DNA of 24,603 bases from the NCBI GenBank assembly GCA_964599455.1, contig CAZREA010000011.1, forward strand, positions 1-24,603, given 5' to 3'. Position 1 is the stretch's first letter. Every line of letters begins with the position of its first letter. This document shows, piece after piece, positions 2,250 to 22,783 of this stretch. The position numbers and the translations under genes are program-made. The notes below the pieces were generated by a model. The model was not told the DNA's origin. It was given only the letters and a program-made list of their open reading frames with translations, and ran no database searches. This stretch comes from an uncultured Gammaproteobacteria bacterium (lineage in GTDB: Bacteria; Patescibacteriota; Patescibacteriia; UBA9934).

Positions 2250-2325
2250 GGGCCTGTGGCTCAGTTGGTAGAGCGCCGCATTCGCATTGCGGAGGTCAGC
2301 GGTTCGAATCCGCTCAGGTCCACCA
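2250..2325 (+). tRNA. tRNA-Ala (anticodon CGC)
   Basis: Hand-folded 76-nt cloverleaf. Acceptor GGGCCTG/CAGGTCC with G3:U70; D arm GCTC-AGTTGGTA-GAGC; anticodon arm CCGCA-TTCGCAT-TGCGG; T arm AGCGG-TTCGAAT-CCGCT; A73; encoded CCA. Confidence 0.9.
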
Positions 2326-4866: not shown

Positions 4867-7485
4867 GTGGGTGTGTTTATACGAAGGTTTTTTCAAACAT
4901 TTTTTTTGGTCATTTTTGCGGCTGTTAGTACAGGTTTGCCGATATTTTTTGCATATGCCGATACGCTGTCATCGGTCGAAGCGCAGCCGTCGTCGCTTGT
5001 TGTAAGTCAGGGTGCAAATCAAAAATTTCTTTTTACGACAGTTTCGGCCTGGACCGATGGCGAAACGCTTACCATCACGTTTCCGAGCGGATATACAACG
5101 ACGTCCATTACCGAAGATGATGTTGATATTGCTGATGATGGTGTTGATAAAACAACGGCCGCTACATGTACAGGAACCGAAGAGATGTCGGTGGCGATGG
5201 CGGCAAATGTTTTAACGTTAACGGTGTGTAGTGGTGATGGTGGTTCGGTTGGTGCAGGTTCGGCGGTGGTGATTGAAGTTGGTCGCAATGCGTCATCCTC
5301 CGGCAACGGCACGCAACAAATAACAAATCCCTCGAATCAAAGTTCTTATTTTATCGATATCGGCGGCACGTTCGGCGATGGCGGCTCGGTTATTGTTCCT
5401 ATCGTCGCTACTGATTCGTCGGGTGTTTCAACGACAGTGCCTTCATCAAGTTCGGGCGGAAGTGGCGGCGGCGGTGGAGGTGGCGGAACCGTTGGTGGAG
5501 GAGATGATAGTGATAGTGGTGATGAGGTTGATGAGGGAACGGATGAACCCGATCCGGGAACTGATGAAGGTACGGATGAAACGGATCCTACAGATCCGGG
5601 AATTGATGAGGAAACGCCGGGGGAAGATGGGACTCCAGAAGGAGATCCAGGATCAACGGATACGGGTTCGGACACGAGTGGTGATGCATCCGGAGATAGT
5701 TCATCGTCAGGTGAAGATTCGTCGAGCGGTGACGACGCTTCCTCGGGCACAGACTCAGAAGGCGGAGAGGATACGAGTGGCGGAGCCGGATCTCTTTCGG
5801 AGCAAGAGATTGATCTTGGTATTTATGCGTATGATTTGCCGTTGGCGGTTACTGATGATGGCGTGAGCGTGTTGCCGGGAACAACGGCGACCGTTGTTGT
5901 TTTTTTACCTAAAGAAGAGGATGCAGAAAAGATGGTTTTAGAAATCGGTCCGCGCTCATATGCTTTTGTAGAAGTGCCAGATGGCTCGTGGTCGATTGAT
6001 GTCGTGTTGCCGCAAGCTAATATTCCCGGTGTTATTCGCGTGACCGATACCGATGGCTCTACGCGTAGCGCACGAATATTGTTTGATGTGATTGGCGAAG
6101 GTGGCGTTTATGAAATTCTTGAAGGTTCAACGCAGGGTATTGAAGGTGCTGAGGTGACAGTTCTTTCGTCTAATGGTTTGATTTGGGATGGTGCAGCTTA
6201 TGAACAATCCCCAATTCTGCTAACTAATAATCAGGGAAATGGTATTGCGTGGTATGTACCGAATGGAATGTATCAAGTTCGAGTGACGAAACAGGGATAC
6301 GAAGAAACGACTGTTTTTGTTACGGTAACAAATACTATTCTCGCTCCGACGATTTTTCTCGAACGTACAGACGAAGTCGTGGTGCCGCCGGAAGAAGGTG
6401 AGCAGACGGGCACGGGAGAACTATCAGTAACAGACTCACCTGGCATCAGCGAACTCAAACAAGAAACGTTTTTCGAAAGTCTTCTTCCTGATTTTCTTTC
6501 TGAACTCCCTGTGCTTCCAGAAACATTCCTCCCTTTTCTCTCCGAGGAAGATGCACAGACTGTTCAGGATGTAGCCGTGCCGGCCGTGGCGGTTGCAACC
6601 GTAGCAGTGACAGCAGCTTCGGGAGCAACAAATCTAGGCTTGTTGTTGTATTCCTTTTTCACACAACCACTGCTTTTTCTCTCCCGTCGTCGGAATCGTC
6701 AGGTGAGCATTGCCTATAATAGTGCAACTAAGATGCCCCTTGATCTTGTTACTATTCGTGTTTTTGCATCCGAAACCGGACGATTAGTGAAGACATTGGT
6801 CACTAATGAAAAGGGAGAATTCTTTCTTTCACTTAATAAAATTGGGAAATATCGTCTTGAAGCGATGAAAACAGGATTTGTGTTTCCGAGCGAGCATTTT
6901 AAAGAGGTGAGAGAAGATGGAAAATATCAGGATGTCTATGCAGGACAGGAAATAGAAATAGGTGAAGGATCGCCGTTGATCGCGATATCCATGCCGCTTG
7001 ATCCTGAAGGGGTTGATATACCTATGAAGCAATTGCAGTGGCAGCGTTTCAAACGACGTTTTGCGACGGCACTTTCTCCGATGAGCGTACTAGTGGCGTT
7101 TATTGCCTTTTTGGCAACACCAGTTTTTTTTACGGGAATGCTCTTTTTTGCGCAGATTCTTTTTTGGGCAATCGCATGGCGCTTGACGCATAAAAAACGT
7201 CCAATGTCATGGGGTATTGTCTATGACGCACAAACGCGTAAGCCTGTGGGCAATACGGTCATCCGACTCTTTGAACCGCAGTATAATAAGCTGGTCGAAT
7301 CAACGTTGTCTGATGCGCAGGGACGATATGCATTTTTATTAGGACCCAATGCGTATTTTGCTACTTATCGCAAAGATGGCTACGTCGAGGCGACGGTTCG
7401 ACCTATCGACTATCGTGCAAAAACAGAACCGCAAATTTTCGGAGTTGCGGTTCCGTTAGGACGCGATCAACAGAAACATGGATAA
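4867..7485 (+). CDS. Large multi-TM surface protein with an acidic linker and CarboxypepD_reg-like domains (operon gene 3)
   Basis: 872-aa ORF with a GTG start at 4867. AAGGAGAGG lies at 4843-4851, so the exact start is uncertain. It has an N-terminal signal/TM followed by a beta domain. About 115 aa form a G/S/D/E/T low-complexity region. Three segments match the carboxypeptidase-regulatory-like fold pattern: GAEVTVLSSNG...NNQGNGIAWYVPNGMYQVRVTKQGYEE, VTIRVFASETGRLV...NEKGEFFLSLNKIGKYRLEAMKTGF, and NTVIRLFEP...DAQGRYAFLLGPNAYFATYRKDGY. Several hydrophobic helices lie between them. Confidence 0.8.
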   Translation: MGVFIRRFFQTFFLVIFAAVSTGLPIFFAYADTLSSVEAQPSSLVVSQGANQKFLFTTVSAWTDGETLTITFPSGYTTTSITEDDVDIADDGVDKTTAATCTGTEEMSVAMAANVLTLTVCSGDGGSVGAGSAVVIEVGRNASSSGNGTQQITNPSNQSSYFIDIGGTFGDGGSVIVPIVATDSSGVSTTVPSSSSGGSGGGGGGGGTVGGGDDSDSGDEVDEGTDEPDPGTDEGTDETDPTDPGIDEETPGEDGTPEGDPGSTDTGSDTSGDASGDSSSSGEDSSSGDDASSGTDSEGGEDTSGGAGSLSEQEIDLGIYAYDLPLAVTDDGVSVLPGTTATVVVFLPKEEDAEKMVLEIGPRSYAFVEVPDGSWSIDVVLPQANIPGVIRVTDTDGSTRSARILFDVIGEGGVYEILEGSTQGIEGAEVTVLSSNGLIWDGAAYEQSPILLTNNQGNGIAWYVPNGMYQVRVTKQGYEETTVFVTVTNTILAPTIFLERTDEVVVPPEEGEQTGTGELSVTDSPGISELKQETFFESLLPDFLSELPVLPETFLPFLSEEDAQTVQDVAVPAVAVATVAVTAASGATNLGLLLYSFFTQPLLFLSRRRNRQVSIAYNSATKMPLDLVTIRVFASETGRLVKTLVTNEKGEFFLSLNKIGKYRLEAMKTGFVFPSEHFKEVREDGKYQDVYAGQEIEIGEGSPLIAISMPLDPEGVDIPMKQLQWQRFKRRFATALSPMSVLVAFIAFLATPVFFTGMLFFAQILFWAIAWRLTHKKRPMSWGIVYDAQTRKPVGNTVIRLFEPQYNKLVESTLSDAQGRYAFLLGPNAYFATYRKDGYVEATVRPIDYRAKTEPQIFGVAVPLGRDQQKHG
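5449..5797 (+). repeat. Low-complexity acidic Gly/Ser/Asp/Glu/Thr linker (coding, inside gene 3)
   Basis: Translation reads SSSGGSGGGGGGGGTVGGGDDSDSGDEVDEGTDEPDPGTDEGTDETDP...SSGEDSSSGDDASSGTDSEGGEDTSGG. This region also produces the spurious antisense ORF 5346..5750. Confidence 0.8.
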
Positions 7486-10400
7486 AGGCGCAAACATGCG
7501 GGGTCTTTTTTCGTTGACGATGACAATCGTCAGTTCTTTTGTTATTTTTTTCGCTTCTTTTCTTACGTTCTCCCCTCTTCTTGCTCGTGCGGCATCGGCA
7601 CCAAATATTTTGATGTATCAAGGAAGACTTTTAAATGCAAGTCGCGTTCCGGTGTCATCTGCGTCGGTAAGCATGATTTTTGAACTATATACGGCGTCGT
7701 CCGGTGGAACATGCGTGTGGTCAAATTCTTCAGCTACGTGTGCGTCGGCAACGGCGCGCACAGTTACGTTAACTGACGGGCTTTTTAGCGAGGCATTGGG
7801 GGATACCGGTTCGTCATATGCTGCAATCTCTGACAGTATTTTTGCCGACAATGCCACGGTCTATCTCCAAATAACGATTGCTGGTGAAACCCTTTCTCCC
7901 CGTAAACAGATTCTCTCAGCTCCATACGCCTTAAATTCCGATACACTTGATGGCCTCGATGTCGATAATGATGGTGCTACGGCAGCAGCTGTGGTTGCGT
8001 ATAATTCTTCGGGAAATCTCGTCGTTACAGGTAATCCGTCCGGATCCGGCGTATCAAATGGATCGCTTTATATCAATCCCGGAAGTTCGGATACGGCGGC
8101 AAATGATACGATTTTTGGTGTTGCCGATGGTGGCACAGAGCTTTTCCGTATTGATAAAGAAGGTGATGTATCGCTTGCGACAACAAGTGGGTTTACATGT
8201 ACGGATTGTATTGATTGGTCGGATTTTTCTGACAGCGCCACACTTGATGCGGCAACAACGGTAACGCTTGGTTCGAGTAACTTTACTTTTTCCGTGGCGA
8301 GTTCCGGTTCGTATCTCATGACCAATTCTGCCGGAACATTTCTCACTATCGCTTCCACAGGGGCGTACACGTACACGCTCGATGCCACGAATAACCCCGC
8401 GTTTACCATTACCAACGCGGGCTCATCGAACATCATGAACAATCTTAGTGGTACTGGTGATTTTGTTCTGCAGGATAATGGTACGGAATTTCTTACGATT
8501 ACCGATGCTGGCGCATATCTTTTTGTGCAAGATTCCATTGATAACCCTCTTTATACTGTTCGTAATGACGGAACAAGCGATACCTATTTTGAATCGACCT
8601 CTTCCGGGGATATTGAAATGCGACTAACGGGTACCGGAGATTTTATTGTCAAAGATAACGGCTCTGCCTTTTTCACGCTGAGCGATGGAGGCGGATTTGA
8701 TCTTGCACTCGATGCCACCGATAATCCTGCCTATACCGTTACGAATGCTGGTTCTGCTGATGTTACTTACAATTTGAGCGGTACGGGTGATTTTTTGGTG
8801 CAAGACAACGGCTCGGCATTCTTTACGCTATCTGACGCAGGCGCGATCAGCTTTACGCTTGATGCAACGGACAATCCGGCCTTCACACTCACCAACGCGG
8901 GTTCATCGAACATTATTAACAATCTTAGTGGTACCGGTGATTTTGTTTTGCAAGATGCGGGTTCGACGTTTTTTACTTTTTCAGATACCGGAGGATTTGA
9001 TCTCACCCTTGATGGAACGGATAACCCTGCTTTTACGGTAACAAATGCCGGATCTTCTGACATCACCTATAATTTAAGTGGCACAGGCGATTTTTATCTC
9101 AAAGATAATGGTACAGAATTTTTGACTATTACTGATACAGGCGCATACCTCTTCGTTCAAGATTCGACGGATAACCCTCTTTATACTGTTCGTAATGACG
9201 GAACAAGCGATACCTATTTTGAATCGGCATCTTCGGGAGATATCGAAATGCGACTAACGGGTACCGGAGATTTTATTGTAAAAGATGGAACTACGGCGTT
9301 TTTTACGTTTGCTGATGACAGCGCGGTTACTTTTGATGCAGTTGCAACAACAGGAACAGCTTTTGCTTTAAGTACAGGTACTCTTACGACAGGAAAGGGA
9401 ATGAAGATCTCTCGTAATAGCGGTGGAGCCGATTTTGACGGTGTACTTTTTGAAGTAGAGCAAAATAATACAAGCGTTACCTCGGATGGATCAGCAATTC
9501 GTATTTCACAAAGTGGAGCAGGAAATGCAAGTGCTTTACAGATTGTACAAAATACCGTTGCCAACGCCACTACATCAATAACGTCACAAGCGGTTGCAAT
9601 TGATGTGAATGAAATACAAAATAATGATGAAGTGATTCTTATTCGTTCAGATGCCGATGGCACACCTGATGCGGAATTTCGTTTTGAAAATGATGGTGAT
9701 GCGTTTGCTGATGGGGCTTGGAATGGTACAGGTGCTGACTACGCGGAATATTTTCCTACAACCGATACCGGATTGTCGGACTATATGCTTGTTTGTCAGG
9801 ATCTGTCGCAATCGGAAAATGTGAAAACGTGTACAGCGGGAGAACAGCGTGTGATGGGTGTGATTTCTACGAATCCCGCGTTTATCGGAAATAATCAGGG
9901 AGCCGAGAAGAGTTTAGAAGACGATCGGCATTATCGATTAGTGGGTATGATGGGACAAATTGAAACGCTTGTCTCGACGGCAGATGGTGCCATTGCTATT
10001 GGTGATCCGTTGGCGGTTTCGTCTGTATACGATGGATATGCAGGAAAGGCATCAGGAAATACCTATATCATTGGTCGTGCACTTGAATCGTTAGCGTCAG
10101 GATCTGGAACGATTAAGGTACTTGTGCAGCCGATGTGGTATGGCGGAGATATACTGACGCTCGATGGTGATGTTTCGGTGCACGGAGCATCTATGACTTT
10201 GGCTTCGCTCGGAATGGCAACGATTGATGAGCAATCCTTTAACTCGGCTGGACTTACTTTTGCAGGATCAGCGTGGAATGGAATTACTGCAGAAGATCGA
10301 GCGATGACGCTCGTGAATGTAGTGTCTGATGTAGATGAATATGGATTGCGTTTGCGTGATACGAATGGAGAAGACCAATTCTCGTTCAGTAATACGGGTG

Positions 10401-11680
10401 ATTTTGCCTTATCGGGAAAATTGTATCCATCTGATAATGGCGTGATGCAGTATGGCGCATATCTCTATTACGACAGTATCGGTGCGGGGTATATGCGCAC
10501 AAATGCGGCCGGATGGGCATCGACGGCAGCAAACTACGCAACGCCATTTATTTCCTCTGATGCGCTGGTTACTGGTGAAATTGTAACCTTTAGTCAAACA
10601 AACGCAGGCGTTACCCGTTCGTCGGATGCGTATGATGATCGCATCGCCGGTGTGGTTTCGTCGGGAGCGGGATTTTTGGCAGGAACGCAAGTTGCGGGAT
10701 CCTACCCTATTATTTTGCTCGGCCGCGTATCGACACTGGTCAGTGCAGAAAATGGAGCGATTGTCGCAGGTGATCCACTTACCACATCTTCTCGTCCTGG
10801 CTATGCCATGAAGGCAACGCAAGCAGGACAAATTCTCGGCTATGCGCTGGAGGCATTTTCTGGTTCGGAAGGTTCGATCATGACGTTTGTTCGTCCAACA
10901 TTCTTTAATGGGGCATCATCGCAAGCGGGAGATACGCAAAATGGACTTTCGCAACTTGTTGATGTGGAGACATTGGATATTTCTGGTGCACTCAACATGA
11001 ATGGAGGCAGAATCTTGAGCGTGGGATCGATTTCCGGCATGAGCAATTGGGAGATCACGGAAAATGGCAATATCGTGACGCGTGGTCAGGTCACACAACT
11101 TGTTCGCTCGTTGCAAAACGAAGATGTTGCGACTTATGCCGTCACTGCTCCAGAAACGTACGTACAACTTTCCGGCACGTCCACATTGGAAAACGGTTTC
11201 GCGAGGATTCGTTTCGAGGATCTTGATCCTCAATTCAACGACATTATCGATCCCGCCTTGTCGTATCGTGTTTTTGTGACTCCTGCGGGCGTAACCGGAC
11301 AGCTCTATGTTACCGATCGTACGACTAATGGATTTATCGTGCATGACGCCGATGGTGGTTCAGGCGTGGCGGTTGATTGGCTCGTGATTGCGTATCGTCA
11401 CGACATTGCACCACTCACCGCACAAAATGGTGACATTAGCCCTGTTCCTGATGAAGACGATGAGATTTTAGAATCTGATCCAATTGAGGATGAAGAGGTG
11501 ATAATACCAGCGGAAGATGAAGAAGAGATTGGAGGTGAAGATGTATCTGACGTGATAGAATCTGTTGACGAAACGGTGACGTCAGAGACTGTATCAGATG
11601 ATGAAACGGATCAAGGCGATGACACGATTGTTGTTGATGACGTTTCATTGGGATCGGGTGATGCCGAAATTTCTTCGTAA
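7478..11680 (+). CDS. Giant (1400 aa) secreted repeat-containing fibre/adhesin-like protein (operon gene 4)
   Basis: ATG 7478 overlaps the gene 3 stop (ATGGATAA). An alternative start is ATG 7496 (MRGLFSLTMTIVSSFVIFFASF, signal-like). The N-terminal head is ILMYQGRLLNASRVPV...IFELYTASSGGTCVWS...LSPRKQILSAPYALNSDTLDG, a motif seen in many tail-fibre-like surface proteins. Six 50/60-aa tandem repeats follow. The C-terminal module is duplicated (...GVISTNPAFIGN...GMMGQIETLVSTADGAIAIGDPL... and ...GVVSSGAGFLAG...LLGRVSTLVSAENGAIVAGDPL...). The protein ends in a strongly acidic tail. Confidence 0.85.
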   Translation: MDKGANMRGLFSLTMTIVSSFVIFFASFLTFSPLLARAASAPNILMYQGRLLNASRVPVSSASVSMIFELYTASSGGTCVWSNSSATCASATARTVTLTDGLFSEALGDTGSSYAAISDSIFADNATVYLQITIAGETLSPRKQILSAPYALNSDTLDGLDVDNDGATAAAVVAYNSSGNLVVTGNPSGSGVSNGSLYINPGSSDTAANDTIFGVADGGTELFRIDKEGDVSLATTSGFTCTDCIDWSDFSDSATLDAATTVTLGSSNFTFSVASSGSYLMTNSAGTFLTIASTGAYTYTLDATNNPAFTITNAGSSNIMNNLSGTGDFVLQDNGTEFLTITDAGAYLFVQDSIDNPLYTVRNDGTSDTYFESTSSGDIEMRLTGTGDFIVKDNGSAFFTLSDGGGFDLALDATDNPAYTVTNAGSADVTYNLSGTGDFLVQDNGSAFFTLSDAGAISFTLDATDNPAFTLTNAGSSNIINNLSGTGDFVLQDAGSTFFTFSDTGGFDLTLDGTDNPAFTVTNAGSSDITYNLSGTGDFYLKDNGTEFLTITDTGAYLFVQDSTDNPLYTVRNDGTSDTYFESASSGDIEMRLTGTGDFIVKDGTTAFFTFADDSAVTFDAVATTGTAFALSTGTLTTGKGMKISRNSGGADFDGVLFEVEQNNTSVTSDGSAIRISQSGAGNASALQIVQNTVANATTSITSQAVAIDVNEIQNNDEVILIRSDADGTPDAEFRFENDGDAFADGAWNGTGADYAEYFPTTDTGLSDYMLVCQDLSQSENVKTCTAGEQRVMGVISTNPAFIGNNQGAEKSLEDDRHYRLVGMMGQIETLVSTADGAIAIGDPLAVSSVYDGYAGKASGNTYIIGRALESLASGSGTIKVLVQPMWYGGDILTLDGDVSVHGASMTLASLGMATIDEQSFNSAGLTFAGSAWNGITAEDRAMTLVNVVSDVDEYGLRLRDTNGEDQFSFSNTGDFALSGKLYPSDNGVMQYGAYLYYDSIGAGYMRTNAAGWASTAANYATPFISSDALVTGEIVTFSQTNAGVTRSSDAYDDRIAGVVSSGAGFLAGTQVAGSYPIILLGRVSTLVSAENGAIVAGDPLTTSSRPGYAMKATQAGQILGYALEAFSGSEGSIMTFVRPTFFNGASSQAGDTQNGLSQLVDVETLDISGALNMNGGRILSVGSISGMSNWEITENGNIVTRGQVTQLVRSLQNEDVATYAVTAPETYVQLSGTSTLENGFARIRFEDLDPQFNDIIDPALSYRVFVTPAGVTGQLYVTDRTTNGFIVHDADGGSGVAVDWLVIAYRHDIAPLTAQNGDISPVPDEDDEILESDPIEDEEVIIPAEDEEEIGGEDVSDVIESVDETVTSETVSDDETDQGDDTIVVDDVSLGSGDAEISS
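8327..9286 (+). repeat. Intragenic tandem repeat array: six units of 50, 60, 50, 50, 50 and 60 aa
   Basis: The unit consensus is NGSxFFTLSDxGxxxFTLDATDNPAFTVTNAGSSxIxxNLSGTGDFxLQD. The two 60-aa units (8477-8656 and 9107-9286) share exact 57-nt blocks (8540-8596 = 9170-9226) and exact 35-nt blocks. Confidence 0.9.
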
Positions 11681-11686
11681 TTTTTT

Positions 11687-14020
11687 ATGCGCCTTTCTTC
11701 CAACCGCCTATTTCTCAGACTCATGACCTGGCCCTTCTATCTCGTGGCGGTTTTGGTGCCAACCTTGATCGTTCCCTTTTTTGCTGATCCGCTCGAAATT
11801 CACAAGATGACCGTTTTTGTCGTACTGATCATGATCTCGGCTTTTGCCTGGTTATTTCAAGCCATGCGTCATCGACAAGTAACTGTTGTACGGACATGGA
11901 CATTTTTACCAGTCTGTCTTTTTTTTATTGCTACCTGCGTTTCAGCGTTGCTTTCTGTGGCGCCAGGAATGAGTTGGTTGGGGCTAGAAAAAACTGACGG
12001 AGCCAGTGTCGTCATGACGTTTGCGGGAATGTTATGTGTGCTCTTGATCCCGCATATTTATGCATTGTTTGGGAAGGTTTTTGTTCAGCGATTTTCATTC
12101 GCCACTCTGCTTGGCGGGGTATTGGTCGTGGTATTGATGCTGTTGTCGTGGTTTGGAATTCTTCCTTTGACATTAAGTGTTTCGTTGGGAGCGCCAAATG
12201 CGCTGGCATTTTATTTAGGAACTCTGGTGGTCATGTGGCTTGGTTCTCGTTTTTATGAGCAGGAAGGTGACAGAAAGATGATCTCTGTAGTCGGTTGGAT
12301 TCTTTATGTGGCTTTTCTCGGTGTTGCGTTTACGCTTGACGCTCCGGTTGTCTGGTTGGTGTTGGTGTTGTCTTTGGTTTGCATGCTGGCTGCGGTTTTT
12401 GTGCGACCGCCTGAAGGAGTTGGTGTTGAGAAAATTTTGCCACCTGTTCTTCTCATCGTTCTTGCGATATTTGCTTGGCTATTGCCGCCGTTGGTGCGCG
12501 GTGTTTTTCCGGCAGAAATCGTCCCTTCATTTTCGGCGAGTTGGTCAATGGTACAGTCGGTTTGGCACGGCATACCATTGTGGTTAGGAACCGGGCCGGG
12601 CACATATGCTATTTCCTATGCGCAGTCGTATCCGTTAGCCATGAACGCGACGCCATTTTGGAATGTGACTTTTCAATCGAGCTATGCCCATCTGCTCACC
12701 TTGGCTGTCACCCACGGTCTTTTTGGTCTCATCACCTTTTTGTTCTCGAGCTTTGTTGGGCTCGGCCTTTTTTTCCAGGCCTGGCTTCGTGCCTCGGCAA
12801 AAAATAAAAGCATACTCTTAGTCATTGGCTCTGGTTTCATTTTTCTTTTCTTTGCTTCATTCGTCTATTCATTTACGCTTTCTTTTGTTGCACTCTTTTT
12901 CCTCTTATTAGGCTTTGTCCATGCGCTGCGAGCACATCAAACAAAGGATTATGTGTTCGCTTCGTCTGCGCGCGCATCATTGCTTGCAACTGGAGGATTT
13001 GTGGTGGCGATGGTTGCGATGGTGACGGTGATGTTTGTGACCGTGGTGCGCTACACGGCGGAAATTTCCTATGCCCACGCGGTGTCATTACGGCGTGCGG
13101 AAGCATCAATTGATGAAGTAATTGTAGCGCTTGATAAAGCCGCCTCGCGTAATCAGTGGAATGATCGTTACTATCGTGAATTGAGCCTGGTGTTGTTAGA
13201 AAAAGTTGAACAATTGGTCCAACAGCAGGCTTCAAGTGAATCTGTACAATCCGTTTTGGCAGCGGCGGTAAATGCATCGGTCCGCGCAACGGACATTGGT
13301 CCGCAAAATGTGCAAAATTGGAAAGTACGCGGCAATGTGTATCGTGAGGTTGCTCCGGCTGTTGCCAATGCCGCTGATTTTTCCATTGGTTCTTTCCAGA
13401 CTGCACAACGATTGGCGCCAAATAATCCGGCGTATGCAGTTGGCTTGGCGCGTGCCTATCTCATGAAGGCGGACTTACTTCGTCAGCAAACAACAAGTGA
13501 CGACGCTGCGGTTGCCAAACAGGCACAAACGTTGCGTGACGAAGCACTTGCCAGTGCCGAAAAAGCGTTGCAACAGGCACTGACATTAAAAAAAGACTAT
13601 ACGGTTGCCCAGTATTTTTTAAGCATGGTGTATGAACGTCAGGGCAAACTGGGTGATGCGGTCAAAAGCATGGAAGCCGTGAAAGTTGCCAATATGCAAG
13701 ATGTGGGCGTCGGCATGCAATTATCCCTCCTTTATCTGCGTCAAGGAAAAAATGATCTCGCCAAAGCGGAGTTACAACGCATCGTTGCCTTGTCGCCTAC
13801 CTTTTCTAACGCCCATTGGTATCTTTCGGTAATTTATGAAGAAGAAGGGAAGACCGATGAGGCAATAAAAGAAGTAGAGGCGGTTTTGCAACAAAACCCT
13901 GAAAATCAAACCGTGAAACAGCGTCTTGAGCGTTTGCAAAGCGGTGTCACCTCCGATGATGCCGCCACAACCGTGCCACCGATTGAGGACGATTTCAAGG
14001 ATGTAGAGACGGGTCGCTGA
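11687..14020 (+). CDS. O-antigen-ligase-like (Wzy_C) polytopic membrane protein with C-terminal TPR repeats (operon gene 5)
   Basis: 777 aa, with roughly 12 TM helices. Wzy_C-like signatures are IPLWLGTGPGTYAISY and SSYAHLLTLAVTHGLFGLITFLF. The C-terminal ~300 aa have TPR-like periodicity (AQYFLSMVYERQGKLGDAVKSMEAV; LSLLYLRQGKNDLAKAELQRIVALSP; AHWYLSVIYEEEGKTDEAIKEVEAVLQQNPEN). The start lies 6 nt after the gene 4 stop. Confidence 0.75.
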   Translation: MRLSSNRLFLRLMTWPFYLVAVLVPTLIVPFFADPLEIHKMTVFVVLIMISAFAWLFQAMRHRQVTVVRTWTFLPVCLFFIATCVSALLSVAPGMSWLGLEKTDGASVVMTFAGMLCVLLIPHIYALFGKVFVQRFSFATLLGGVLVVVLMLLSWFGILPLTLSVSLGAPNALAFYLGTLVVMWLGSRFYEQEGDRKMISVVGWILYVAFLGVAFTLDAPVVWLVLVLSLVCMLAAVFVRPPEGVGVEKILPPVLLIVLAIFAWLLPPLVRGVFPAEIVPSFSASWSMVQSVWHGIPLWLGTGPGTYAISYAQSYPLAMNATPFWNVTFQSSYAHLLTLAVTHGLFGLITFLFSSFVGLGLFFQAWLRASAKNKSILLVIGSGFIFLFFASFVYSFTLSFVALFFLLLGFVHALRAHQTKDYVFASSARASLLATGGFVVAMVAMVTVMFVTVVRYTAEISYAHAVSLRRAEASIDEVIVALDKAASRNQWNDRYYRELSLVLLEKVEQLVQQQASSESVQSVLAAAVNASVRATDIGPQNVQNWKVRGNVYREVAPAVANAADFSIGSFQTAQRLAPNNPAYAVGLARAYLMKADLLRQQTTSDDAAVAKQAQTLRDEALASAEKALQQALTLKKDYTVAQYFLSMVYERQGKLGDAVKSMEAVKVANMQDVGVGMQLSLLYLRQGKNDLAKAELQRIVALSPTFSNAHWYLSVIYEEEGKTDEAIKEVEAVLQQNPENQTVKQRLERLQSGVTSDDAATTVPPIEDDFKDVETGR

Positions 14021-14039: not shown

Positions 14040-14650
14040 CTAAACCCCCAGCGTAGCTGGGGTGTACGTTTGTAGGCAACGCATATACTAAAAGCCGCCT
14101 GGCAGGGCGGCTTTTAGTGTTGCATTGTCCTATGTATCACAAACGTACCATCCGTACCTTATCACATTGTTACTATGACCTAAAATATCATCTCGTATGG
14201 ACACCGAAGTATCGAGGAAAGGTATTAGGATCAGACAAGATCACACAGGAGCTTATTCGAATCTTTGAGAGTATCTGCAAGTGGAAACATTGGGAGATCA
14301 TCGAACTCAATATCCAAGAGGATCATATCCACATGTGTTTGCTTGCCACTCCTCGTGACTCAATCTCCTATGTCATGCAAAACCTCAAAGGCAAATCATC
14401 TGCATGGCTCAAGAAAAAGATCAAACGTACCCATGGACTCTACGAACGGCACTCCCTTTGGGCACGAGGCTACTTTGTCTCAACAATAGGAATCGATGAG
14501 TTCATCATCCGTCGCTACGTCAGACACCAACATCACCACAATGAGATCGACCAACCCTCTTTGTTTGAAAAACTCTTAACCTAACACCAGAGCGCCCTGC
14601 CAGCGCAGCTGGCAAACACAAAGCCACCGGACCTCAGTCCGGTGGTCTGG
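14040..14650 (+). mobile_element. IS200/IS605-family insertion sequence (tnpA only); boundaries approximate
   Basis: A Y1 transposase ORF is flanked by subterminal hairpins. On the left: CCCCAGC-GTA-GCTGGGG (14046-14062) and AAAAGCCGCC-TGGCAG-GGCGGCTTTT (14090-14115). On the right: TGCCAGC-GCA-GCTGGCA (14598-14614) and CCACCGGAC-CTCA-GTCCGGTGG (14624-14645). The left CTGGCAGGGCG is the reverse complement of the right CGCCCTGCCAG. No tnpB is present. Confidence 0.75.
14132..14584 (+). CDS. tnpA: IS200/IS605-family Y1 (HUH) transposase TnpA
   Basis: YDLKYHLVWTPKYRGKVL, the HUH motif EDHIHMCLLATP, KGKSSAWL, and the catalytic-Tyr region LWARGYFVSTIG. The layout is collinear with Salmonella IS200 TnpA. 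The start is ATG 14132 (MYHKRT) or 14117. Confidence 0.85.
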   Translation: MYHKRTIRTLSHCYYDLKYHLVWTPKYRGKVLGSDKITQELIRIFESICKWKHWEIIELNIQEDHIHMCLLATPRDSISYVMQNLKGKSSAWLKKKIKRTHGLYERHSLWARGYFVSTIGIDEFIIRRYVRHQHHHNEIDQPSLFEKLLT

Positions 14651-18735: not shown

Positions 18736-18780
18736 ATGTATTTGAGACGAGTTTCGTCAAATACGTCAGTCGACTTTACT

Positions 18781-19257
18781 ATGATGTATGAAATCATGAC
18801 GATCATCCCGTCCCGCATTAGCGATACGGAGATCGATACGGCTATCGCTACAATAGCAAAACTCGTGGAAAACGCGGGTGGTAAGGTAGAAAAGACACAA
18901 AATCTTGGCAAAATGAAACTCGCCTATCCCATCGAGCATCAGCGACATGGGACGTATGTGTTGGTATATGCCGACATTGCCGCCGAGGTTATGCCAAAGC
19001 TCGATCAAAATTTGCGCTTGACCGAAGAAGTGATTCGTCACCTCATCATTGCTCGCCCAAATGGTATTCCTACGGCCGACTTTAAATTGGTGTCGTACAC
19101 GGTGCCGCTTACACCCGAAGGTCGTCGCGCGAGTGAACGCGATGATCGTCCCGTGAAGCCTTCATCTGAAGCTCTTGCCGACAAAGCGTTATCCACGGTT
19201 GAAATTGAAGGGAAGCTCGATGCTATTTTAGATTCTGATATCATGAAAAATATCTAA
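18781..19257 (+). CDS. rpsF: 30S ribosomal protein S6 with a C-terminal extension
   Basis: MMYEIMTIIPSR...GKVEKTQNLGKMKLAYPIEHQRHGTYVLVYADI...LRLTEEVIRHLI matches S6. The conserved core starts at 18781/18784. The upstream in-frame ATG at 18736, preceded by AGGAGG, would add 15 aa and remains a possible start. Confidence 0.85.
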   Translation: MMYEIMTIIPSRISDTEIDTAIATIAKLVENAGGKVEKTQNLGKMKLAYPIEHQRHGTYVLVYADIAAEVMPKLDQNLRLTEEVIRHLIIARPNGIPTADFKLVSYTVPLTPEGRRASERDDRPVKPSSEALADKALSTVEIEGKLDAILDSDIMKNI

Positions 19258-19262
19258 TATCT

Positions 19263-19727
19263 ATGGCTGGATCTTTGAATCGTGCCATGCTCATTGGCAA
19301 CCTGACGCGCGACCCTGAATTGCGCAAAACGGCCGGTGGTCAGAGCGTTTGCTCATTCAGCATTGCCACGAACCGAAGCTATACCGATGCATCGGGTCAA
19401 AAAAAAGAACAGGTTGATTATCACAATATTGTCACCTGGGGAAAGTTGGCTGAGATTTGTGGTCAATATTTAGTGAAAGGCAAAAAGATTTACGTTGATG
19501 GTCGTTTGCAAACTCGTGAATGGGAGGCGCAGGATGGTCAAAAACGTTTCCGTACCGAAATTGTAGCGGAAAATATGATCATGCTTGATCGTCCTGGCCA
19601 AGGTGGTTCGGGTATGGGCGGGGGTATGAATAATGCTGGATTTGCTGCATCGATGCCGACCAGTGAAGTTGAAGCGCCCTCGACCAATCCTGATGATGAA
19701 ATTAAACTTGAAGATATTCCTTTTTAA
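19263..19727 (+). CDS. ssb: Single-stranded DNA-binding protein
   Basis: The OB fold reads LNRAMLIGNLTRDPELRKTAGGQSVCSFSIATNRSY...VDYHNIVTWGKLAEICGQYLVKGKKIYVDGRLQTREW. It has a Gly-rich linker and an acidic C-terminal tip DDEIKLEDIPF. Confidence 0.95.
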   Translation: MAGSLNRAMLIGNLTRDPELRKTAGGQSVCSFSIATNRSYTDASGQKKEQVDYHNIVTWGKLAEICGQYLVKGKKIYVDGRLQTREWEAQDGQKRFRTEIVAENMIMLDRPGQGGSGMGGGMNNAGFAASMPTSEVEAPSTNPDDEIKLEDIPF

Positions 19728-19736
19728 TCCATACGT

Positions 19737-19955
19737 ATGTTGCAACGAAATACTGAACGACACTGCTTCTTTTGTGTGAATAAAGATGTAGTTGTTGATT
19801 ACAAAAATACGGATATGCTAAAGCGCTTCATCTCTTCCTTTGGGAAGATTGTTTCACGCAAGCGCAGCGGTGTTTGTGCTAAGCATCAACGTGAAATTGC
19901 GCAAGAAATCAAGCGCTCACGTGTCATTGGGTTGTTGCCGTTTGTCGCACGATAA
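19737..19955 (+). CDS. rpsR: 30S ribosomal protein S18
   Basis: 72 aa: CFFCVNKDVVVDYKNTDMLKRFISSFGKIVSRKRSGVCAKHQREIAQEIKRSRVIGLLPF. It sits in the conserved rpsF-ssb-rpsR arrangement. Confidence 0.95.
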   Translation: MLQRNTERHCFFCVNKDVVVDYKNTDMLKRFISSFGKIVSRKRSGVCAKHQREIAQEIKRSRVIGLLPFVAR

Positions 19956-20018
19956 CGGATAATACGGATAAACGACGGATGGGACGGATCGCGGACGTCC
20001 CGTGGTCCCTCCGGATGT

Positions 20019-20046
20019 AGAGACGACCCGACGGGTCGTCTCTTTC
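20019..20046 (+). terminator. Rho-independent terminator after rpsR
   Basis: AGAGACGACC-CGACG-GGTCGTCTCT (10 bp) followed by TTT. Confidence 0.65.
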
Positions 20047-20078
20047 GTTCAATAATGTGTTACGCGCACCATGTATAT

Positions 20079-21122
20079 ATGATTTCCCGCGACGATATCC
20101 AATTCCGGGCACAATTATGGAATCGAGTATACGATTATCTCGATCATTTTTTTCGTTCACGTGGCTACATCGAAGTTCGAACGCCATTGTTGGTGCAATC
20201 GCCAGGCATGGAACCGAACCTAGACCCGATTGGTGTTGATATTCGGATTCTTGGATCAAATGGTTTCTTGGGACGAAACCAGAACGAAGGAAGCGTAGCT
20301 CGACCCTCCTCCTTCCAGGAGGGGGAATTAAAGGGGGAGGCTGATTGTTTGCGAGGCGGCCTCATCACCAGCCCCGAATACAGCATGAAAAAATTGCTTG
20401 GCACTGGCATGGAGGCGATTTATACGATTACGCCCGTGTTTCGTAACTGCGAAAAGCTTGGCGAGCGGTGGAGTGTGGAGTTTACGATGCTTGAATGGTA
20501 TCGTCAGCATGTGGATTATCGTGCGTGCATGGATGAAACCGAGGAGCTCGTCAATGGTCTTTTGGGATGGGAAGGGAAGTGGCAGCGGATTTCGTATGTC
20601 GACGAGTTTGAAAAGATTTGTGGCTTTGTTCCGCGTGAAGAGTCGCGAGATGAGTTGCTCCATCTCGGAAAAGAGCACGGGCTTACCATCAACGAGCAAG
20701 ATGCGGTTCATGAACTCATCGATCAACTTTTTTACGCCCTTGTCTGGCCACAGATAAAAAAAGAAGAACGATACATGCTGTGCGAATTCCCGATTCCCTG
20801 TGCCTCGTTGGCTCGAGTCGGTGCTGATGGCCGATACGCAGAGCGATTCGAGGCTTTCGTTGGCGAGATCGAACTTTGCAACGGTTTTACTGAACTTGTC
20901 GATGCAGATGAGCAGCGCCGTCGTTTTCTCCTGGAAGCCGAAGAACGTCGATCTTTGGATAAAGAGGTCTTTCCCATTGACGAAGAGCTCTTGTCTCGGC
21001 TATCCTCGATCGCGTCTCCCACATACGGCAATGCCCTCGGTGTCGACCGTTTGGTCATGCTAGCTGCCGGTATGAAAGATATTGATTCTATCCATTTATT
21101 TCCTCCTTCGCAGAGATTTTAA
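20079..21122 (+). CDS. epmA: EF-P--(R)-beta-lysine ligase EpmA (GenX/PoxA; truncated class II LysRS paralogue)
   Basis: The ORF track gives 20055..21122; the start is taken at Met9 (MISRDDIQFRAQLW). Class II motifs are collinear with E. coli EpmA: RGYIEVRTPLL, ITSPEYSMKKLL, VFRNCEKLGERWSVEFTMLEWY, ERFEAFVGEIELCNGFTEL, and GNALGVDRLVMLAAG. The stop lies 2 nt before efp. Confidence 0.8.
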   Translation: MISRDDIQFRAQLWNRVYDYLDHFFRSRGYIEVRTPLLVQSPGMEPNLDPIGVDIRILGSNGFLGRNQNEGSVARPSSFQEGELKGEADCLRGGLITSPEYSMKKLLGTGMEAIYTITPVFRNCEKLGERWSVEFTMLEWYRQHVDYRACMDETEELVNGLLGWEGKWQRISYVDEFEKICGFVPREESRDELLHLGKEHGLTINEQDAVHELIDQLFYALVWPQIKKEERYMLCEFPIPCASLARVGADGRYAERFEAFVGEIELCNGFTELVDADEQRRRFLLEAEERRSLDKEVFPIDEELLSRLSSIASPTYGNALGVDRLVMLAAGMKDIDSIHLFPPSQRF

Positions 21123-21124
21123 CT

Positions 21125-21688
21125 ATGTCTCCAAATGATATTCGCAAAGGTACGGTTATCAATTACGAAAACGATCTCTGGGTCGTTGTCAGTTTCCAGC
21201 GCGTGTCTCCTGGTAAAGGCAGTTCCTTTGTTCGCACAAAAATAAAATCACTTTCTAGCGGCAAGGTTGTAGAAAATAATTTTAAATCTTCCGAATCGCT
21301 TACGTTTGAACAGGTCGGTTTTAAAAAGATGCAATTTATTTTCGGTGACGAAAACACCCTCACCTTCATGGACGGCCAAACCTACGAGCAGGTAGCTATT
21401 GGTCGAGATACGATTGGAGATGACGCGAAATATTTGAAGGAAGGTCTTGATGTAACGGTGATTATGCACGGTGATCGCGCTATTTCGATGGAACTTCCGC
21501 TTAAGATCGAATATGTTGTTGCTGAAACTGAACCAGCGGTCAAAGGTGATACGGCTTCAGGTAACGTGTTGAAAGATGCCAAGATGGACAACGGTTTAAT
21601 GGTTCGTGTGCCGATTTTCATTAAAGAAGGCGATACGCTCATGATCTCGACCGAATCTGGTGATTACGTGGAACGCGTGAGTCGCTAG
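21125..21688 (+). CDS. efp: Translation elongation factor P
   Basis: 187 aa: NDIRKGTVINYENDLWVVVSFQRVSPGKGSSFVRTKIKSLSSGKVVE... The modifiable Lys sits in the PGKG loop, and the protein has typical EF-P length. Confidence 0.95.
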   Translation: MSPNDIRKGTVINYENDLWVVVSFQRVSPGKGSSFVRTKIKSLSSGKVVENNFKSSESLTFEQVGFKKMQFIFGDENTLTFMDGQTYEQVAIGRDTIGDDAKYLKEGLDVTVIMHGDRAISMELPLKIEYVVAETEPAVKGDTASGNVLKDAKMDNGLMVRVPIFIKEGDTLMISTESGDYVERVSR

Positions 21689-21770: not shown

Positions 21771-21807
21771 AAAAAATCTGATCTCATCATGAGATCAGAT
21801 TTTTTTG
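21771..21807. terminator. Bidirectional rho-independent terminator
   Basis: A6-ATCTGATCTCAT-C-ATGAGATCAGAT-T7, a perfect 12-bp palindrome. It lies between the 3' end of efp (+) and the 3' end of the minus-strand tRNA. Confidence 0.8.
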
Positions 21808-21831
21808 GTCCCGGACCATAATTCGAGCTTT

Positions 21832-21907
21832 TGGTGGACCTAGGGAGAATCGAACTCCCGCTACTCGGTACCAACTCGAGTGTGCTGACCACATACACCA
21901 TAGGCCC
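21832..21907 (-). tRNA. Atypical tRNA: best fold gives anticodon UGG (Pro) on a tRNA-Ala-type acceptor stem
   Basis: Reverse complement: GGGCCTA TG GTGT ATGTGGTCA GCAC A CTCGA GTTGGTA CCGAG TAGC GGGAG TTCGATT CTCCC TAGGTCC A CCA (76 nt). The T arm and D arm are good. The anticodon stem has an A31/C39 mismatch; alternatively it forms 5 bp with a 9-nt loop. Position 37 is U. The acceptor carries G3:U70 and A73. Confidence 0.7.
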
Positions 21908-21920
21908 AAGTGGTCCGGGG

Positions 21921-21976
21921 TAAAGAAACAAAAGACTCCCCAAGTATTTCACTGAAGAAATACTTTTTGGGGAGTC
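21921..21976 (-). terminator. Hairpin plus T-tract downstream of the zinc-ribbon gene, 26 nt upstream of the tRNA
   Basis: On the minus strand: GACTCCCCAAAAAGTATTTC-TTCAGT-GAAATACTTGGGGAGTC (with a 3-nt bulge), followed by TTTTGTTTCTTT. Confidence 0.55.
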
Positions 21977-22081
21977 GAATTGTGGTACCGAGCGAAATGG
22001 CCAAAGCCACACTCGAGTACTTCTATATCATCATGACTTTTTGCTCGCGTCAAGTTATAATAGGGAATTTTATGGGGAAAA

Positions 22082-22783
22082 TTATTTTGTGATAGTGAAG
22101 GAGTTGATGAAGGTGTTGTAATCCGCTTCATTGGCGTTGTCGGCTTCGTAGACGGTCATCAACTGATAGAGTGTATTACCAACGAAGATGAATTTTCCTT
22201 GAAAATACACGGGTGTACCAGGAACAACATTCTCATTACGAATGAGAAAGTCGAGCGAAGTATTACCGGAAAACGTTCCAAAGCTTGACGACACGAGTTG
22301 TTGACCTGAATTCTGGGTAAAACCATTCAAAGAATTTTGTAACACTTCGCGAGGATTTGAAAGATCCAGATTAGAGGGGTATTGCGTGATGTTCAAGGAG
22401 TACACCGTTTCATTTGTCATACTACTTGAAAGTGATTGGATGGTGACGGTGGCATCCGTACCCTCAACGGGGATTGTCGAGGTGGTGGGGGTTGGCGCGT
22501 AAGGAAAAGCTGCAGCAAAAGTACCATTTGGATCGGTATAGGTATACCAATCTTGTTGGACGTTCGAAAGATCGGTTCCCTGGTGATAATCATCGAGATT
22601 GATGTCGTCATTCCTTGTCATGCTCCAAAGAAGCATGAGTAAAAAGAGAATACCAATGACAATGCCTATTTTTTTCGTTTTATCTAAGTTGGTAAAGAAA
22701 TCAGGAACGGAAAGCGCAGCTCCACAGGCTGGACAGTTTTTCGCGCCACTCGGTAAAGGCTTTTGACATTTGGGACAGTTCAT
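22082..22783 (-). CDS. Zinc-ribbon / single-TM membrane protein with an extracytoplasmic domain of unknown function
   Basis: 233 aa. The N-terminal CxxC-x10-CxxC ribbon is MNCPKCQKPLPSGAKNCPACG. The TM helix is IGIVIGILFLLMLLW. A ~170-aa Ser/Thr/Asn-rich domain follows. Confidence 0.75.
   Translation of the reverse strand: MNCPKCQKPLPSGAKNCPACGAALSVPDFFTNLDKTKKIGIVIGILFLLMLLWSMTRNDDINLDDYHQGTDLSNVQQDWYTYTDPNGTFAAAFPYAPTPTTSTIPVEGTDATVTIQSLSSSMTNETVYSLNITQYPSNLDLSNPREVLQNSLNGFTQNSGQQLVSSSFGTFSGNTSLDFLIRNENVVPGTPVYFQGKFIFVGNTLYQLMTVYEADNANEADYNTFINSFTITK

Follow-up and report, generated by a model that had tools for sequence, protein, structure and literature searches.

A tRNA-like gene of alanine-type identity with a covarying leader complementary to its anticodon arm in Uhrbacteria-type Patescibacteria

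A tRNA-like gene of 76 nt is located on the minus strand at positions 21832-21907 of the window, the whole 24,603-nt stretch of DNA analysed here (contig CAZREA010000011.1). It is preceded by a leader in which two short blocks, A and B, are complementary to the anticodon arm and an adjoining strand of the D stem, and this complementarity was observed to covary across relatives of the gene. On balance, we think it probable that the gene is the tRNA-like domain of a conserved RNA unit of Uhrbacteria-type candidate phyla radiation (CPR) bacteria, that it is chargeable with alanine and that its anticodon arm serves as an address for its own leader, in a manner that resembles the logic of a T-box.

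The family used for comparison consists of 19 distinct sequences from Ca. Uhrbacteria-type bacteria and metagenomes, which were collected from efp-linked loci and from a pattern scan of metagenomes. A set of 80 efp loci from species-representative genomes was searched with ARAGORN and nhmmer, and six similar 76-nt genes were found which ARAGORN labels as tRNA-Ser (cga or tga). The metagenome scan used a fixed-length pattern in which positions 3, 70 and 34-36 were left free, and 16 loci matched it.

Leader pairing with the anticodon arm

In the window, all ten positions of block A pair with tRNA positions 34-43 (CTCGGTACCA/TGGTACCGAG), with the CCA at the 3' end of the block (21983-21985) standing opposite the UGG triplet and A21986 opposite U37. 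Nine to ten of the ten positions pair in 17 of 18 loci, where shuffled targets average about 7. As an example, the block A and tRNA strands are TCCGGTGTCG and CGACACCGGA in locus L040, TCCGGTGCTA and TAGCACCGGA in L091, CTCGGTGGCA and TGCCACCGAG in L098, and CTCGGTGTTA and TAACACCGAG in L093. Block B is the reverse complement of tRNA positions 21-32, matching at 10 of 12 positions in the window and at 9.5-11.5 of 12 in 15 of the 18 loci.

The helix between block A and positions 34-43 is 97.2% paired and nine of its ten pairs, including those at 34-37, are changed on both sides; by comparison, the anticodon stem of the tRNA itself is 81% paired. For block B, the helix is paired at 89.8%, and both sides have changed in 10 of its 12 pairs. 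When both blocks were aligned together with the tRNA, 93.2% of the cells were paired and 19 of the 22 pairs were changed on both sides. The covariation score of this alignment is 0.633, whereas shuffling gives 0.248 (0/500) and sliding the register by 1-3 columns gives 0.08-0.14. The leader:tRNA pair at position 34 was observed to be A:U (14 loci) or G:C (2 loci), at position 35 C:G (16) or U:A (2), at position 37 G:C (16) or A:U (2) and at position 38 always U:A (18), while five pair types occur at position 36. For the canonical tRNAs of the same loci, the best upstream complement covers 6-8 of 10 positions versus 8-10 of 10 for the family (Mann-Whitney p = 9e-9).

This pairing would account for several oddities of the anticodon arm. 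The identity of the "anticodon" drifts because the triplet co-evolves with the leader and not with codons. A pyrimidine is present at position 37, therefore the leader pairing can run on through the loop, as in the window where U37 is matched by a leader A. Likewise, because of the mismatch built into the anticodon stem, the 3' stem strand pairs better with the leader than with the 5' strand of the tRNA itself. A diversity-generating retroelement or gene conversion was also considered as the source of this variability and was rejected, since no reverse transcriptase lies nearby, the blocks are too short and their order is swapped.

Alanine identity and the anticodon triplet

By structural element, the gene reads GGGCCUA UG GUGU AUGUGGUCA GCAC A CUCGA GUUGGUA CCGAG UAGC GGGAG UUCGAUU CUCCC UAGGUCC A CCA. 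We re-read in this sequence the G3:U70 pair, A73, U37, G32 and the A31.C39 mismatch that had been listed in the initial annotation, and its statement that acceptor pairs 1-6 are those of the tRNA-Ala(CGC) in the window (GGGCCUG/CAGGUCC) is likewise correct. As this canonical tRNA-Ala of the same genome carries both G3:U70 and A73, the alanyl-tRNA synthetase (AlaRS) of the organism uses the standard identity set. ARAGORN, which had been proposed for this locus, labels the gene as tRNA-Pro(tgg). The Rfam tRNA model RF00005 gives it 47.8 bits, above the gathering threshold of 29, and flags 31:39 as a non-pair; the canonical tRNA-Ala(CGC) and tRNA-Arg(CCU) of the window score 71.3 and 55.6 bits respectively. 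Family members score 38-49 bits versus 68-73 for their canonical neighbours, a deficit of about 20-25 bits within the same loci.

An alternative anticodon arm with a 5-bp stem and a 9-nt loop had been suggested as well. It is present in the minimum free energy (MFE) fold of the window copy but was rejected as a conserved feature, since inspection by eye showed a possible 26:44 pair in only about half of the members. A 1-nt insertion into a canonical alanine anticodon loop, or an 8-nt loop register, was discarded because the stems are unpaired in that register. Similarly, a -35-like TTGACA within the loop is not a plausible promoter, as position 36 is variable and a -10 box is missing.

Features common to all 19 sequences are G1G2G3...U70C71C72, A73, the encoded CCA, U8 G9 G10, a 9-nt D loop and a 4-nt variable loop. 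The family alignment contains 29 invariant columns, and the bodies differ from each other at up to about 20 of 69 positions. In the cloverleaf, 95.5% of the cells are paired and 14 of 21 pairs are changed on both sides; pairing is complete (100%) in the acceptor, D and T helices, and the cloverleaf has a covariation score of 0.526 compared with 0.222 for shuffles (0/500). The elbow is canonical, with a TTCRATT T loop, G18 in all 19 members and G19 in 18 of them. G3:U70, A73 and G2:C71 are invariant throughout, whereas pairs 4:69 to 7:66 covary freely, and the alanine-type features are therefore not a matter of chance. The alanine identity set that the initial annotation had recognized on the tRNA is thus borne out and, as judged from these alignments, is under selection across the family.

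Since the anticodon is variable and a long variable arm is lacking, AlaRS would be the sole synthetase whose known recognition rules fit the whole family, and on these established identity rules the tRNA-like domain is most likely charged by AlaRS. We noticed that AlaRS of Uhrbacteria and other Patescibacteria, represented by the alaS product of locus L093 (2886-4676) and 120 homologs, is uniformly about 580-640 aa long (about 590 aa for the typical CPR form), where the catalytic domain and the second additional (editing-associated) domain are present and no Pfam match to the C-terminal C-Ala domain was obtained. These enzymes may rely almost wholly on the acceptor stem.

The anticodon triplet is far less constant than the acceptor. 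Seven triplets were observed in the family (UGA, CGA, UGU, UGG, UGC, UAA and UAG), with the alanine triplet UGC in only two of the 19 members. Bodies that differ at just 5-8 positions carry different triplets, and no position in the molecule is more variable than 36. As an example, L016 and L040 each have a syntenic copy between efp and ftsK whose triplet is CGA, in contrast to the UGG of the window copy beside efp. U34 is present in 16 of 19 members, and U33 and the 7-nt anticodon loop are retained. A pyrimidine occupies position 37 in all 19 members versus none of 26 canonical tRNAs of the same loci, and exactly one non-pair in the anticodon stem is found in 18 of 19 members versus three of the 26 canonical tRNAs (Fisher p = 1.3e-8).

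These features fit neither an alanine nor a proline decoder. A decoding alanine isoacceptor combines an NGC anticodon with a purine at position 37, whereas the window gene has UGG with U37 and the whole family has a pyrimidine there. Bacterial tRNA-Pro carries G35 and G36, which are present in the window triplet and are not conserved in the relatives, including the syntenic ones. It also carries C1:G72, A73 and G37, as does the canonical CPR tRNA-Pro(UGG) at L077, but the window gene has G1:C72 and U37. The UGG triplet reported in the initial annotation is therefore real, but its proline framing does not stand because the relatives carry CGA, UGA, UGU, UGC, UAA or UAG. A comparison of orthologous tRNAs, which had been recommended, gave a variable triplet and neither C1:G72 nor G37.

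The codons were found to keep their standard meaning. In the conserved genes of the window, CCA codons align with proline at 74% of the homolog residues, including invariant prolines, and with alanine at 5%; the corresponding values for proline at CCG, CCU and CCC are 83%, 66% and 68%. Codon-to-homolog alignments thus rule out reassignment of CCA to alanine here and of TCG or TCA to alanine in the relatives with CGA or UGA copies. Targeting of rare codons was rejected as well, since the cognate codons are in ordinary use, with TCG forming 24-32% of serine codons and UUA 27% of leucine codons. Because CCA, TCG and TCA are standard and common, an efficient alanine decoder would be very damaging, and the tRNA would therefore decode very poorly or not at all. 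Low-level insertion of alanine at CCA may occur, and some charging by prolyl-tRNA synthetase (ProRS) through G35, G36 and A73 may also take place. A canonical tRNA-Pro(UGG) presumably exists elsewhere in this organism.

Two outcomes had been foreseen in the initial annotation, namely that the tRNA inserts alanine at proline codons through AlaRS or that ProRS charges it with G3:U70 tolerated. As its main function, both are unsupported: CCA means proline, the marks of tRNA-Pro are absent and the triplet is matched by the leader. We conclude that the window gene is not a proline tRNA. UGG would be a pairing address and not a proline decoder, because UGG, U37, A38 and the 3' stem strand are matched by a covarying leader 75 nt upstream.

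Binding of EF-Tu was predicted from the T-stem values of a published table (PMC3239215). On these values, the predicted binding energy of the family has a mean of -10.7 kcal/mol and a range of -10.1 to -11.2 kcal/mol, with G51:C63 in 19 of 19 members. Predicted binding is approximately that of canonical CPR tRNA-Gly and tighter than that of canonical tRNA-Ala. Set beside the U34 and C37 shared with the staphylococcal non-proteinogenic tRNA-Gly, this makes the signature for ribosomal use a mixed one.

Organization and genomic setting of the unit

The sequence features suggest a non-coding RNA unit that is self-contained and spans about 280 nt (window ~21771-22053, minus strand); its parts are listed in Table 1.

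Table 1. Parts of the RNA unit in the window and the canonical tRNA-Ala used as comparator
Feature	Position	Strand	Description
Promoter -35 box TTGACG	22048..22053	-	TTGAC(A/G) at a constant distance (~36 nt) ahead of leader block B, all 19 loci
Promoter -10-like box TGATAT	22025..22030	-	17 nt after -35; block B starts 7 nt downstream
Leader block B CTCGAGTGTGGC	22006..22017	-	Complementary to D-stem 3' strand, position 26 and anticodon-stem 5' strand (tRNA columns 22-33)
Leader block A CTCGGTACCA	21983..21992	-	Reverse complement of tRNA positions 34-43 (UGGUACCGAG)
Hairpin 1 and flanks	21922..21982	-	A-rich spacer, stem CUCCCCAA...UUGGGGAG, U-rich tract UCUUUUGUUUCUUU; terminator/attenuator-like
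Helix strand a CCCGGACCA	21911..21919	-	Ends 3 nt before tRNA G1 (2-4 nt across family); pairs with a'
tRNA-like domain	21832..21907	-	76 nt, 7/5 cloverleaf, G3:U70, A73, encoded CCA, 9-nt D loop, 4-nt variable loop, loop GUUGGUA (UGG, U37), A31.C39 mismatch
Helix strand a' UGGUCCGGG	21810..21818	-	Starts 13 nt after CCA end
ACCAAAAAAA motif, terminator 2 and U tract	21771..21809	-	10-bp stem AUCUGAUCUC/GAGAUCAGAU, 5-nt loop; shared back-to-back with convergent efp
Canonical tRNA-Ala(CGC), comparator outside the unit	2250..2325	+	G3:U70, A73, acceptor pairs 1-6 identical to 21832-21907 gene, 71.3 bits

The promoter is of the sigma-70 type in all 19 loci, where TTGAC(A/G) is followed after about 17 nt by a -10-like box (TGAAAT, TAATAT, TATAAA and others) and then by a further ~7 nt. 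A simple promoter scanner left the window promoter unflagged. From this arrangement, transcription of the unit would start near block B. A small apical hairpin lies between block B and block A. Hairpin 1 has a fold energy of -25.9 kcal/mol in the window (MFE) and of -15 to -52 kcal/mol across loci. A long hairpin followed by a U tract was observed between the leader and the tRNA in 18 of 18 loci, with arms that differ in sequence yet pair. It is not the terminator of a neighbouring gene because the upstream gene in L083 is divergent.

The tRNA is enclosed by helix a/a', which forms without gaps over 7-11 bp in 14 of 18 loci; its sequence differs between lineages while the pairing is kept. In the DNA of other loci the strands are CCCGGGTC/GACCCGGG, TGCCGAT/ATCGGCA and TGGGTGCC/GGCACCCA. 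As RNA, the helix reads CCCGGACC/GGUCCGGG in the window and CCCGGGUC/GACCCGGG, UGCCGAU/AUCGGCA, UGGGUGCC/GGCACCCA or CCCAAGU/ACUUGGG elsewhere. An (A)CCAA(C) motif after a' and a subsequent hairpin recur across the family. We noticed that the outer helix together with this motif (window 21800-21809) resembles a second acceptor end. Furthermore, the 3' arm of hairpin 1 contains in many loci a GUUGG complementary to CCAAC, and the two could form an alternative pairing. Terminator 2 was left unflagged by the scanner, and its region resembles the terminator-type small RNA (sRNA) model SpF36 at 33.5 bits, below the cut-off.

The window is chromosomal, encoding RmuC, YchF, ribosomal protein S6, SSB, S18, an EpmA/PoxA-like ligase and EF-P; the tRNA gene and efp are convergent. 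The same DNA was found in two metagenome assemblies. Judged from the 80 efp loci, where EF-P identity reaches 89%, the organism falls among Ca. Uhrbacteria and other Patescibacteria (CPR). The cluster S6 - SSB - S18 - EpmA/PoxA-like ligase - EF-P (window 18736-21688, plus strand) is conserved in some 80 CPR genomes, and the window EF-P has a PGKG loop of the lysine type, which suggests EF-P modification of the beta-lysylation type in Patescibacteria.

A conserved protein partner was found neither by all-against-all clustering of the neighbours nor by Pfam, NCBIfam and PDB sequence searches. Adjacency to efp is limited to a few Uhrbacteria and arises from the sampling of loci via efp. Translation genes among the neighbours of the copies encode EF-P, LepA, an IleRS-type enzyme and LeuRS. 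Peptidoglycan genes within 3 kb encode Mur ligases (L085, L090 and L094, with two Mur ligases around the L085/L090 copy), MurJ (L093, L103 and L105) and PBP2 (L083). Chaperones (GroEL, DnaJ) and further housekeeping genes were also found. The leucyl-tRNA synthetase at L089:2503-5943 (minus strand) is 1146 aa long, with NUDIX and alpha/beta-hydrolase domains inserted after its editing domain. A phage or mobile origin was rejected, as the phage collection gave no match, the family pattern gave no match in viral contigs and the neighbours are housekeeping genes.

Several copies are located between murJ and alaS. An intact copy precedes alaS by 193 nt in Uhrbacteria L093. The copy in L105 and L106 has a hairpin insertion of ~52 nt in the T loop, between UUC and AAUU (L105:4415-4467, identical in L106), and its leader blocks are perfect (13 and 12 nt) despite this insertion. 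The trailer of the L064a copy (L064 ~1906-1975) contains a CCACCUUCGC...GCUUCGGUGG hairpin similar to this insertion, which might represent a small insertion element or be intron-like. At L103:4780-4852 (identical to L104:2202-2274), a 73-nt remnant retains the G3:U70 acceptor, D and T arms, while its anticodon arm is truncated and the leader match is lost. This copy is probably a decaying gene. Its truncated arm is no proof that the arm is dispensable, since the leader match is lost as well.

Eight other murJ-alaS loci that were fetched (L107-L109 and L111-L115) have no copy, in contrast to the filled sites of L093, L103 and L105. In seven of them murJ abuts or nearly abuts alaS, and the gap in L107 holds other open reading frames. 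Likewise, efp abuts ftsK in L102, whereas the unit lies between these genes in L016 and L040. Empty sites have just 30-80 nt between the flanking genes. The unit has thus been gained or lost as a block, because it is present or absent at otherwise conserved efp-ftsK and murJ-alaS junctions, which suggests frequent loss or some form of mobility. Closer relatives of the window copy were found neither through the upstream zinc-ribbon protein, an orphan, nor at the four closest EpmA loci, which are without the tRNA.

An orphan gene just upstream of the unit (22082-22783, minus strand) encodes a 233-aa zinc-ribbon/membrane protein which matches only itself among 5.8 billion proteins. Three consecutive large genes (4867-14020, plus strand) encode proteins of 872, 1400 and 777 aa with carboxypeptidase-regulatory-like, peptidase G2-like and TPR domains, which are probably surface or secreted proteins of an episymbiont. 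An IS200/IS605-type Y1 transposase gene (14117-14584, plus strand) lies between these large genes and ychF.

Interpretation and comparison with known systems

We propose that the acceptor, T and D parts have been kept as those of an alanine-accepting tRNA (G3:U70, A73, G2:C71, canonical elbow and encoded CCA), while the anticodon arm has been freed from decoding, as suggested by the pyrimidine at 37, the single stem mismatch and the fast-changing triplet. The mature alanine-type tRNA would pair in vivo with the nascent leader, acting in trans rather than in cis. The first contact would be made between loop positions 34-38 and the exposed 3' half of block A, and strand exchange would possibly come next. 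This pairing would then set the choice between termination at hairpin 1 and read-through into the tRNA, and such attenuation may report alanine charging. A link to alanine is provided by the L093 copy upstream of alaS together with the interrupted L105 copy and the L103 remnant at the same site.

Several points weigh against this proposal. Blocks A and B were found by a search for complementarity, a bias that is mitigated by their fixed place near the promoter and by the shuffle, slide and canonical-tRNA controls. In addition, 13 of the 19 sequences came from a pattern that forces U33, Y37 and A38; seven copies are free of this bias (the six efp-linked ones and L105), and these show the same anticodon-arm features as the rest. 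Full pairing of both blocks needs the D and anticodon stems of the tRNA to be unfolded, and in cis it would form a pseudoknot. The tight predicted EF-Tu binding would suit a ribosome-delivered tRNA as well as a regulator. No downstream gene is conserved, except alaS in one lineage. The T-box covariance model gave no match at its gathering threshold, at E <= 10 or at E <= 0.5, and we identified neither a T-box sequence, nor an antiterminator that reads the tRNA 3' end, nor, by eye, a UGGN box or bulge.

It is possible, though unlikely, that the gene is an attenuated alanine mistranslator with an RNA antidote. The tRNA would decode the codon of its triplet at low level (CCA/CCN here), and the leader (P1 and hairpin 1) would be an antisense sRNA that masks the anticodon arm, as in a toxin-antitoxin or addiction-like pair. 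The combination of full alanine identity with sense anticodons agrees with this, as do the predicted EF-Tu binding, the canonical elbow and the retention of U33 and the 7-nt loop. Hairpin 1 and its U tract could end an sRNA of ~85-100 nt, and presence or absence at the efp-ftsK and murJ-alaS junctions together with decayed copies is typical of dispensable or selfish modules. Attenuating loop features (G33 or A33) are also found in known natural mistranslators (PMC11415595). However, Y37 and the weakened stem oppose useful decoding, the target codons are common and keep their standard meaning, no benefit is evident from a target codon that is ever changing, and the leader as a separate RNA is an assumption only.

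We consider it improbable that the tRNA is a non-ribosomal alanine donor, in the manner of the staphylococcal non-proteinogenic tRNA-Gly (np-tRNA-Gly), for a Fem/MurM-type or other transferase that would act, for example, on peptidoglycan bridges, with the leader as a processing or regulatory accessory. U34 together with C37, which the family shares, is the loop signature reported for np-tRNA-Gly (PMC6103715), and peptidoglycan genes lie within 3 kb in several lineages. Outside the loop, however, the hallmarks of np-tRNAs are absent, as G51:C63 is present in 19 of 19 members, EF-Tu binding is predicted to be tight and the UUC T loop and G18G19 are kept. Neither a Fem-like nor another transferase was found next to any copy, the orphan neighbours have no matches, and the covariation between loop and leader would be left unexplained.

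A two-piece rescue RNA similar to tmRNA is very improbable. After RNase P cleavage, blocks A and B would keep the leader and the tRNA-like domain together, and the alanine-charged molecule would enter the A site independently of codons. G3:U70 and the predicted EF-Tu binding are consistent with this, pairing over 22 nt of the leader could take the place of the anticodon arm, and permissive Rfam scans gave tmRNA matches of 26-35 bits in L083, L096, L097 and L098 and a permuted tmRNA match of 16.4 bits in the window. All of these scores are below the gathering threshold of 47 and cover the tRNA ends only. ARAGORN reported no tmRNA in the 16 metagenome loci, a tag reading frame and pseudoknots were not identified, and the cloverleaf is complete.

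The readings as a true tRNA-Pro and as a pseudogene are poorly supported. G35, G36 and A73 are ProRS identity elements. All three are present in the window gene, and another tRNA-Pro(UGG) in the genome is presumed rather than seen. The alternative in the initial annotation, in which ProRS charges a genuine tRNA-Pro(UGG) and tolerates its G3:U70, is even less probable than a rescue RNA: same-locus relatives carry Ser-, Thr-, Leu- or Ala-type triplets, C72 and U37 stand in place of the G72 and G37 of the canonical CPR tRNA-Pro, the triplet covaries with the leader, and an alanine-chargeable sole decoder would corrupt the invariant prolines encoded by CCA. Least probable of all is a functionless, decaying tRNA-Ala duplicate, which the low general tRNA score, the sporadic presence and the clearly degraded copies (L103 with its truncated arm and lost leader match, L105 with its T-loop insertion) would suit, but which the 29 invariant columns, the compensatory changes in every helix, in the leader blocks and in helix a/a', and the promoter and length conserved across bodies that differ at up to ~20 of 69 positions speak against.

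We found no account of this family in the literature, nor of a tRNA gene with a leader complementary to its own anticodon arm, in a search that did not cover all journals, and Rfam 15 contains no family for the leader. The module is apparently undescribed. It may represent, although here we stop short of calling it probable, a new class of tRNA-centred regulatory RNA, in which a non-decoding, alanine-chargeable tRNA has its arm read over ~22 nt by its own leader, as an autoregulatory or charging-sensing circuit or as an antidote to a mistranslating tRNA, without a described counterpart or Rfam match.

Should this reading be confirmed, selection on the anticodon of this tRNA would act through pairing with a regulatory RNA instead of with codons. 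The tRNA would be a natural example of one set aside from decoding, and its recognition by a leader would be a case outside the T-box family, in the CPR/Patescibacteria, a lineage whose RNA biology is almost unexplored. As the pairing partners are short and covarying, the idea is directly testable. Annotation by anticodon, as by ARAGORN here, labels such genes as tRNA-Pro, Ser, Thr, Leu or Ala. As a result, CPR tRNA inventories become inflated or distorted, and codon reassignment or mistranslation could be claimed in error. Engineers of orthogonal or suppressor tRNAs may also take an interest in a scaffold that would be charged by AlaRS, leaves the anticodon free and brings its own antisense partner.

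Like the family, the staphylococcal np-tRNA-Gly genes are additional tRNA paralogs that keep the usual synthetase identity and have U34 and a pyrimidine at 37. This combination (C37 is reported) is thought to bar decoding (PMC6103715, a wobble-decoding review). In those tRNAs, A51-U63 weakens EF-Tu binding and the UUC T loop and G18G19 are lost (PMC7826273). The family shares U34/Y37 with them, but not the weakened EF-Tu determinants or the loss of UUC and G18G19. The staphylococcal tRNAs also keep their cognate UCC, whereas this family changes its triplet, has a complementary leader and keeps the EF-Tu and elbow features.

Hybrid-identity tRNAs, which include tRNA-Ala(CAG) of CUG-Ala yeasts, the mitochondrial tRNA-Ala(UAG) of Ashbya, G3:U70 allo-tRNAs and Streptomyces tRNA-ProX (PMC11415595, PMC5389517, PMC7609411), likewise combine the identity of one amino acid with the anticodon of another, depend on an anticodon-blind synthetase and have odd loop bases that temper decoding. 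Their anticodon is fixed within a lineage, they have a purine at 37 and they lack an arm-complementary leader, while here Y37 is found and no reassignment. The yeast and mitochondrial examples are moreover accompanied by codon reassignment. Allo-tRNAs have 8/4 or 9/3 acceptor/T branches (PMC5389517), whereas the family is 7/5 with fully paired acceptor and T helices. A survey of 4-bp anticodon stems does not describe the family (PMC13092985).

The tRNA-like domain of tmRNA (RF00023) shares the G3:U70 acceptor, A73-CCA, a GGGUUCGAUUCCC-type T arm and charging by AlaRS, which is presumed here. The family differs in its complete cloverleaf with an anticodon arm, the lack of an mRNA-like domain and pseudoknots, and scores below the gathering threshold. 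In the permissive scans, clan competition prefers the tmRNA model, at the two ends only, over the tRNA model for L083, L096, L097 and L098, the acceptor and T arms of which are strongly tmRNA-like. The tRNA-Other of Bacillus cereus is reported to be a tRNA-shaped regulator outside translation (PMC3399842), as would apply here. It belongs to another lineage, has other identity features and is not known to pair with a leader of its own gene.

The closest likeness in layout is to the T-box riboswitch (RF00230), although membership in that family was rejected since the covariance model gave no matches. The T-box riboswitch is a tRNA-sensing transcription attenuator of Gram-positive bacteria. In both systems a 5' leader stem shows on its 3' side a codon-like sequence to the anticodon of one tRNA, and a terminator-like hairpin with a U tract follows before the gene; in the unit, these parts would be the 3' triplet of block A and hairpin 1. 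The unit differs in that pairing extends over 10 nt (positions 34-43) and a further 12-nt block (positions 21-32), compared with 3 nt in the T-box. Furthermore, its downstream "gene" is the tRNA itself, and the ligand would be a dedicated, probably non-decoding tRNA.

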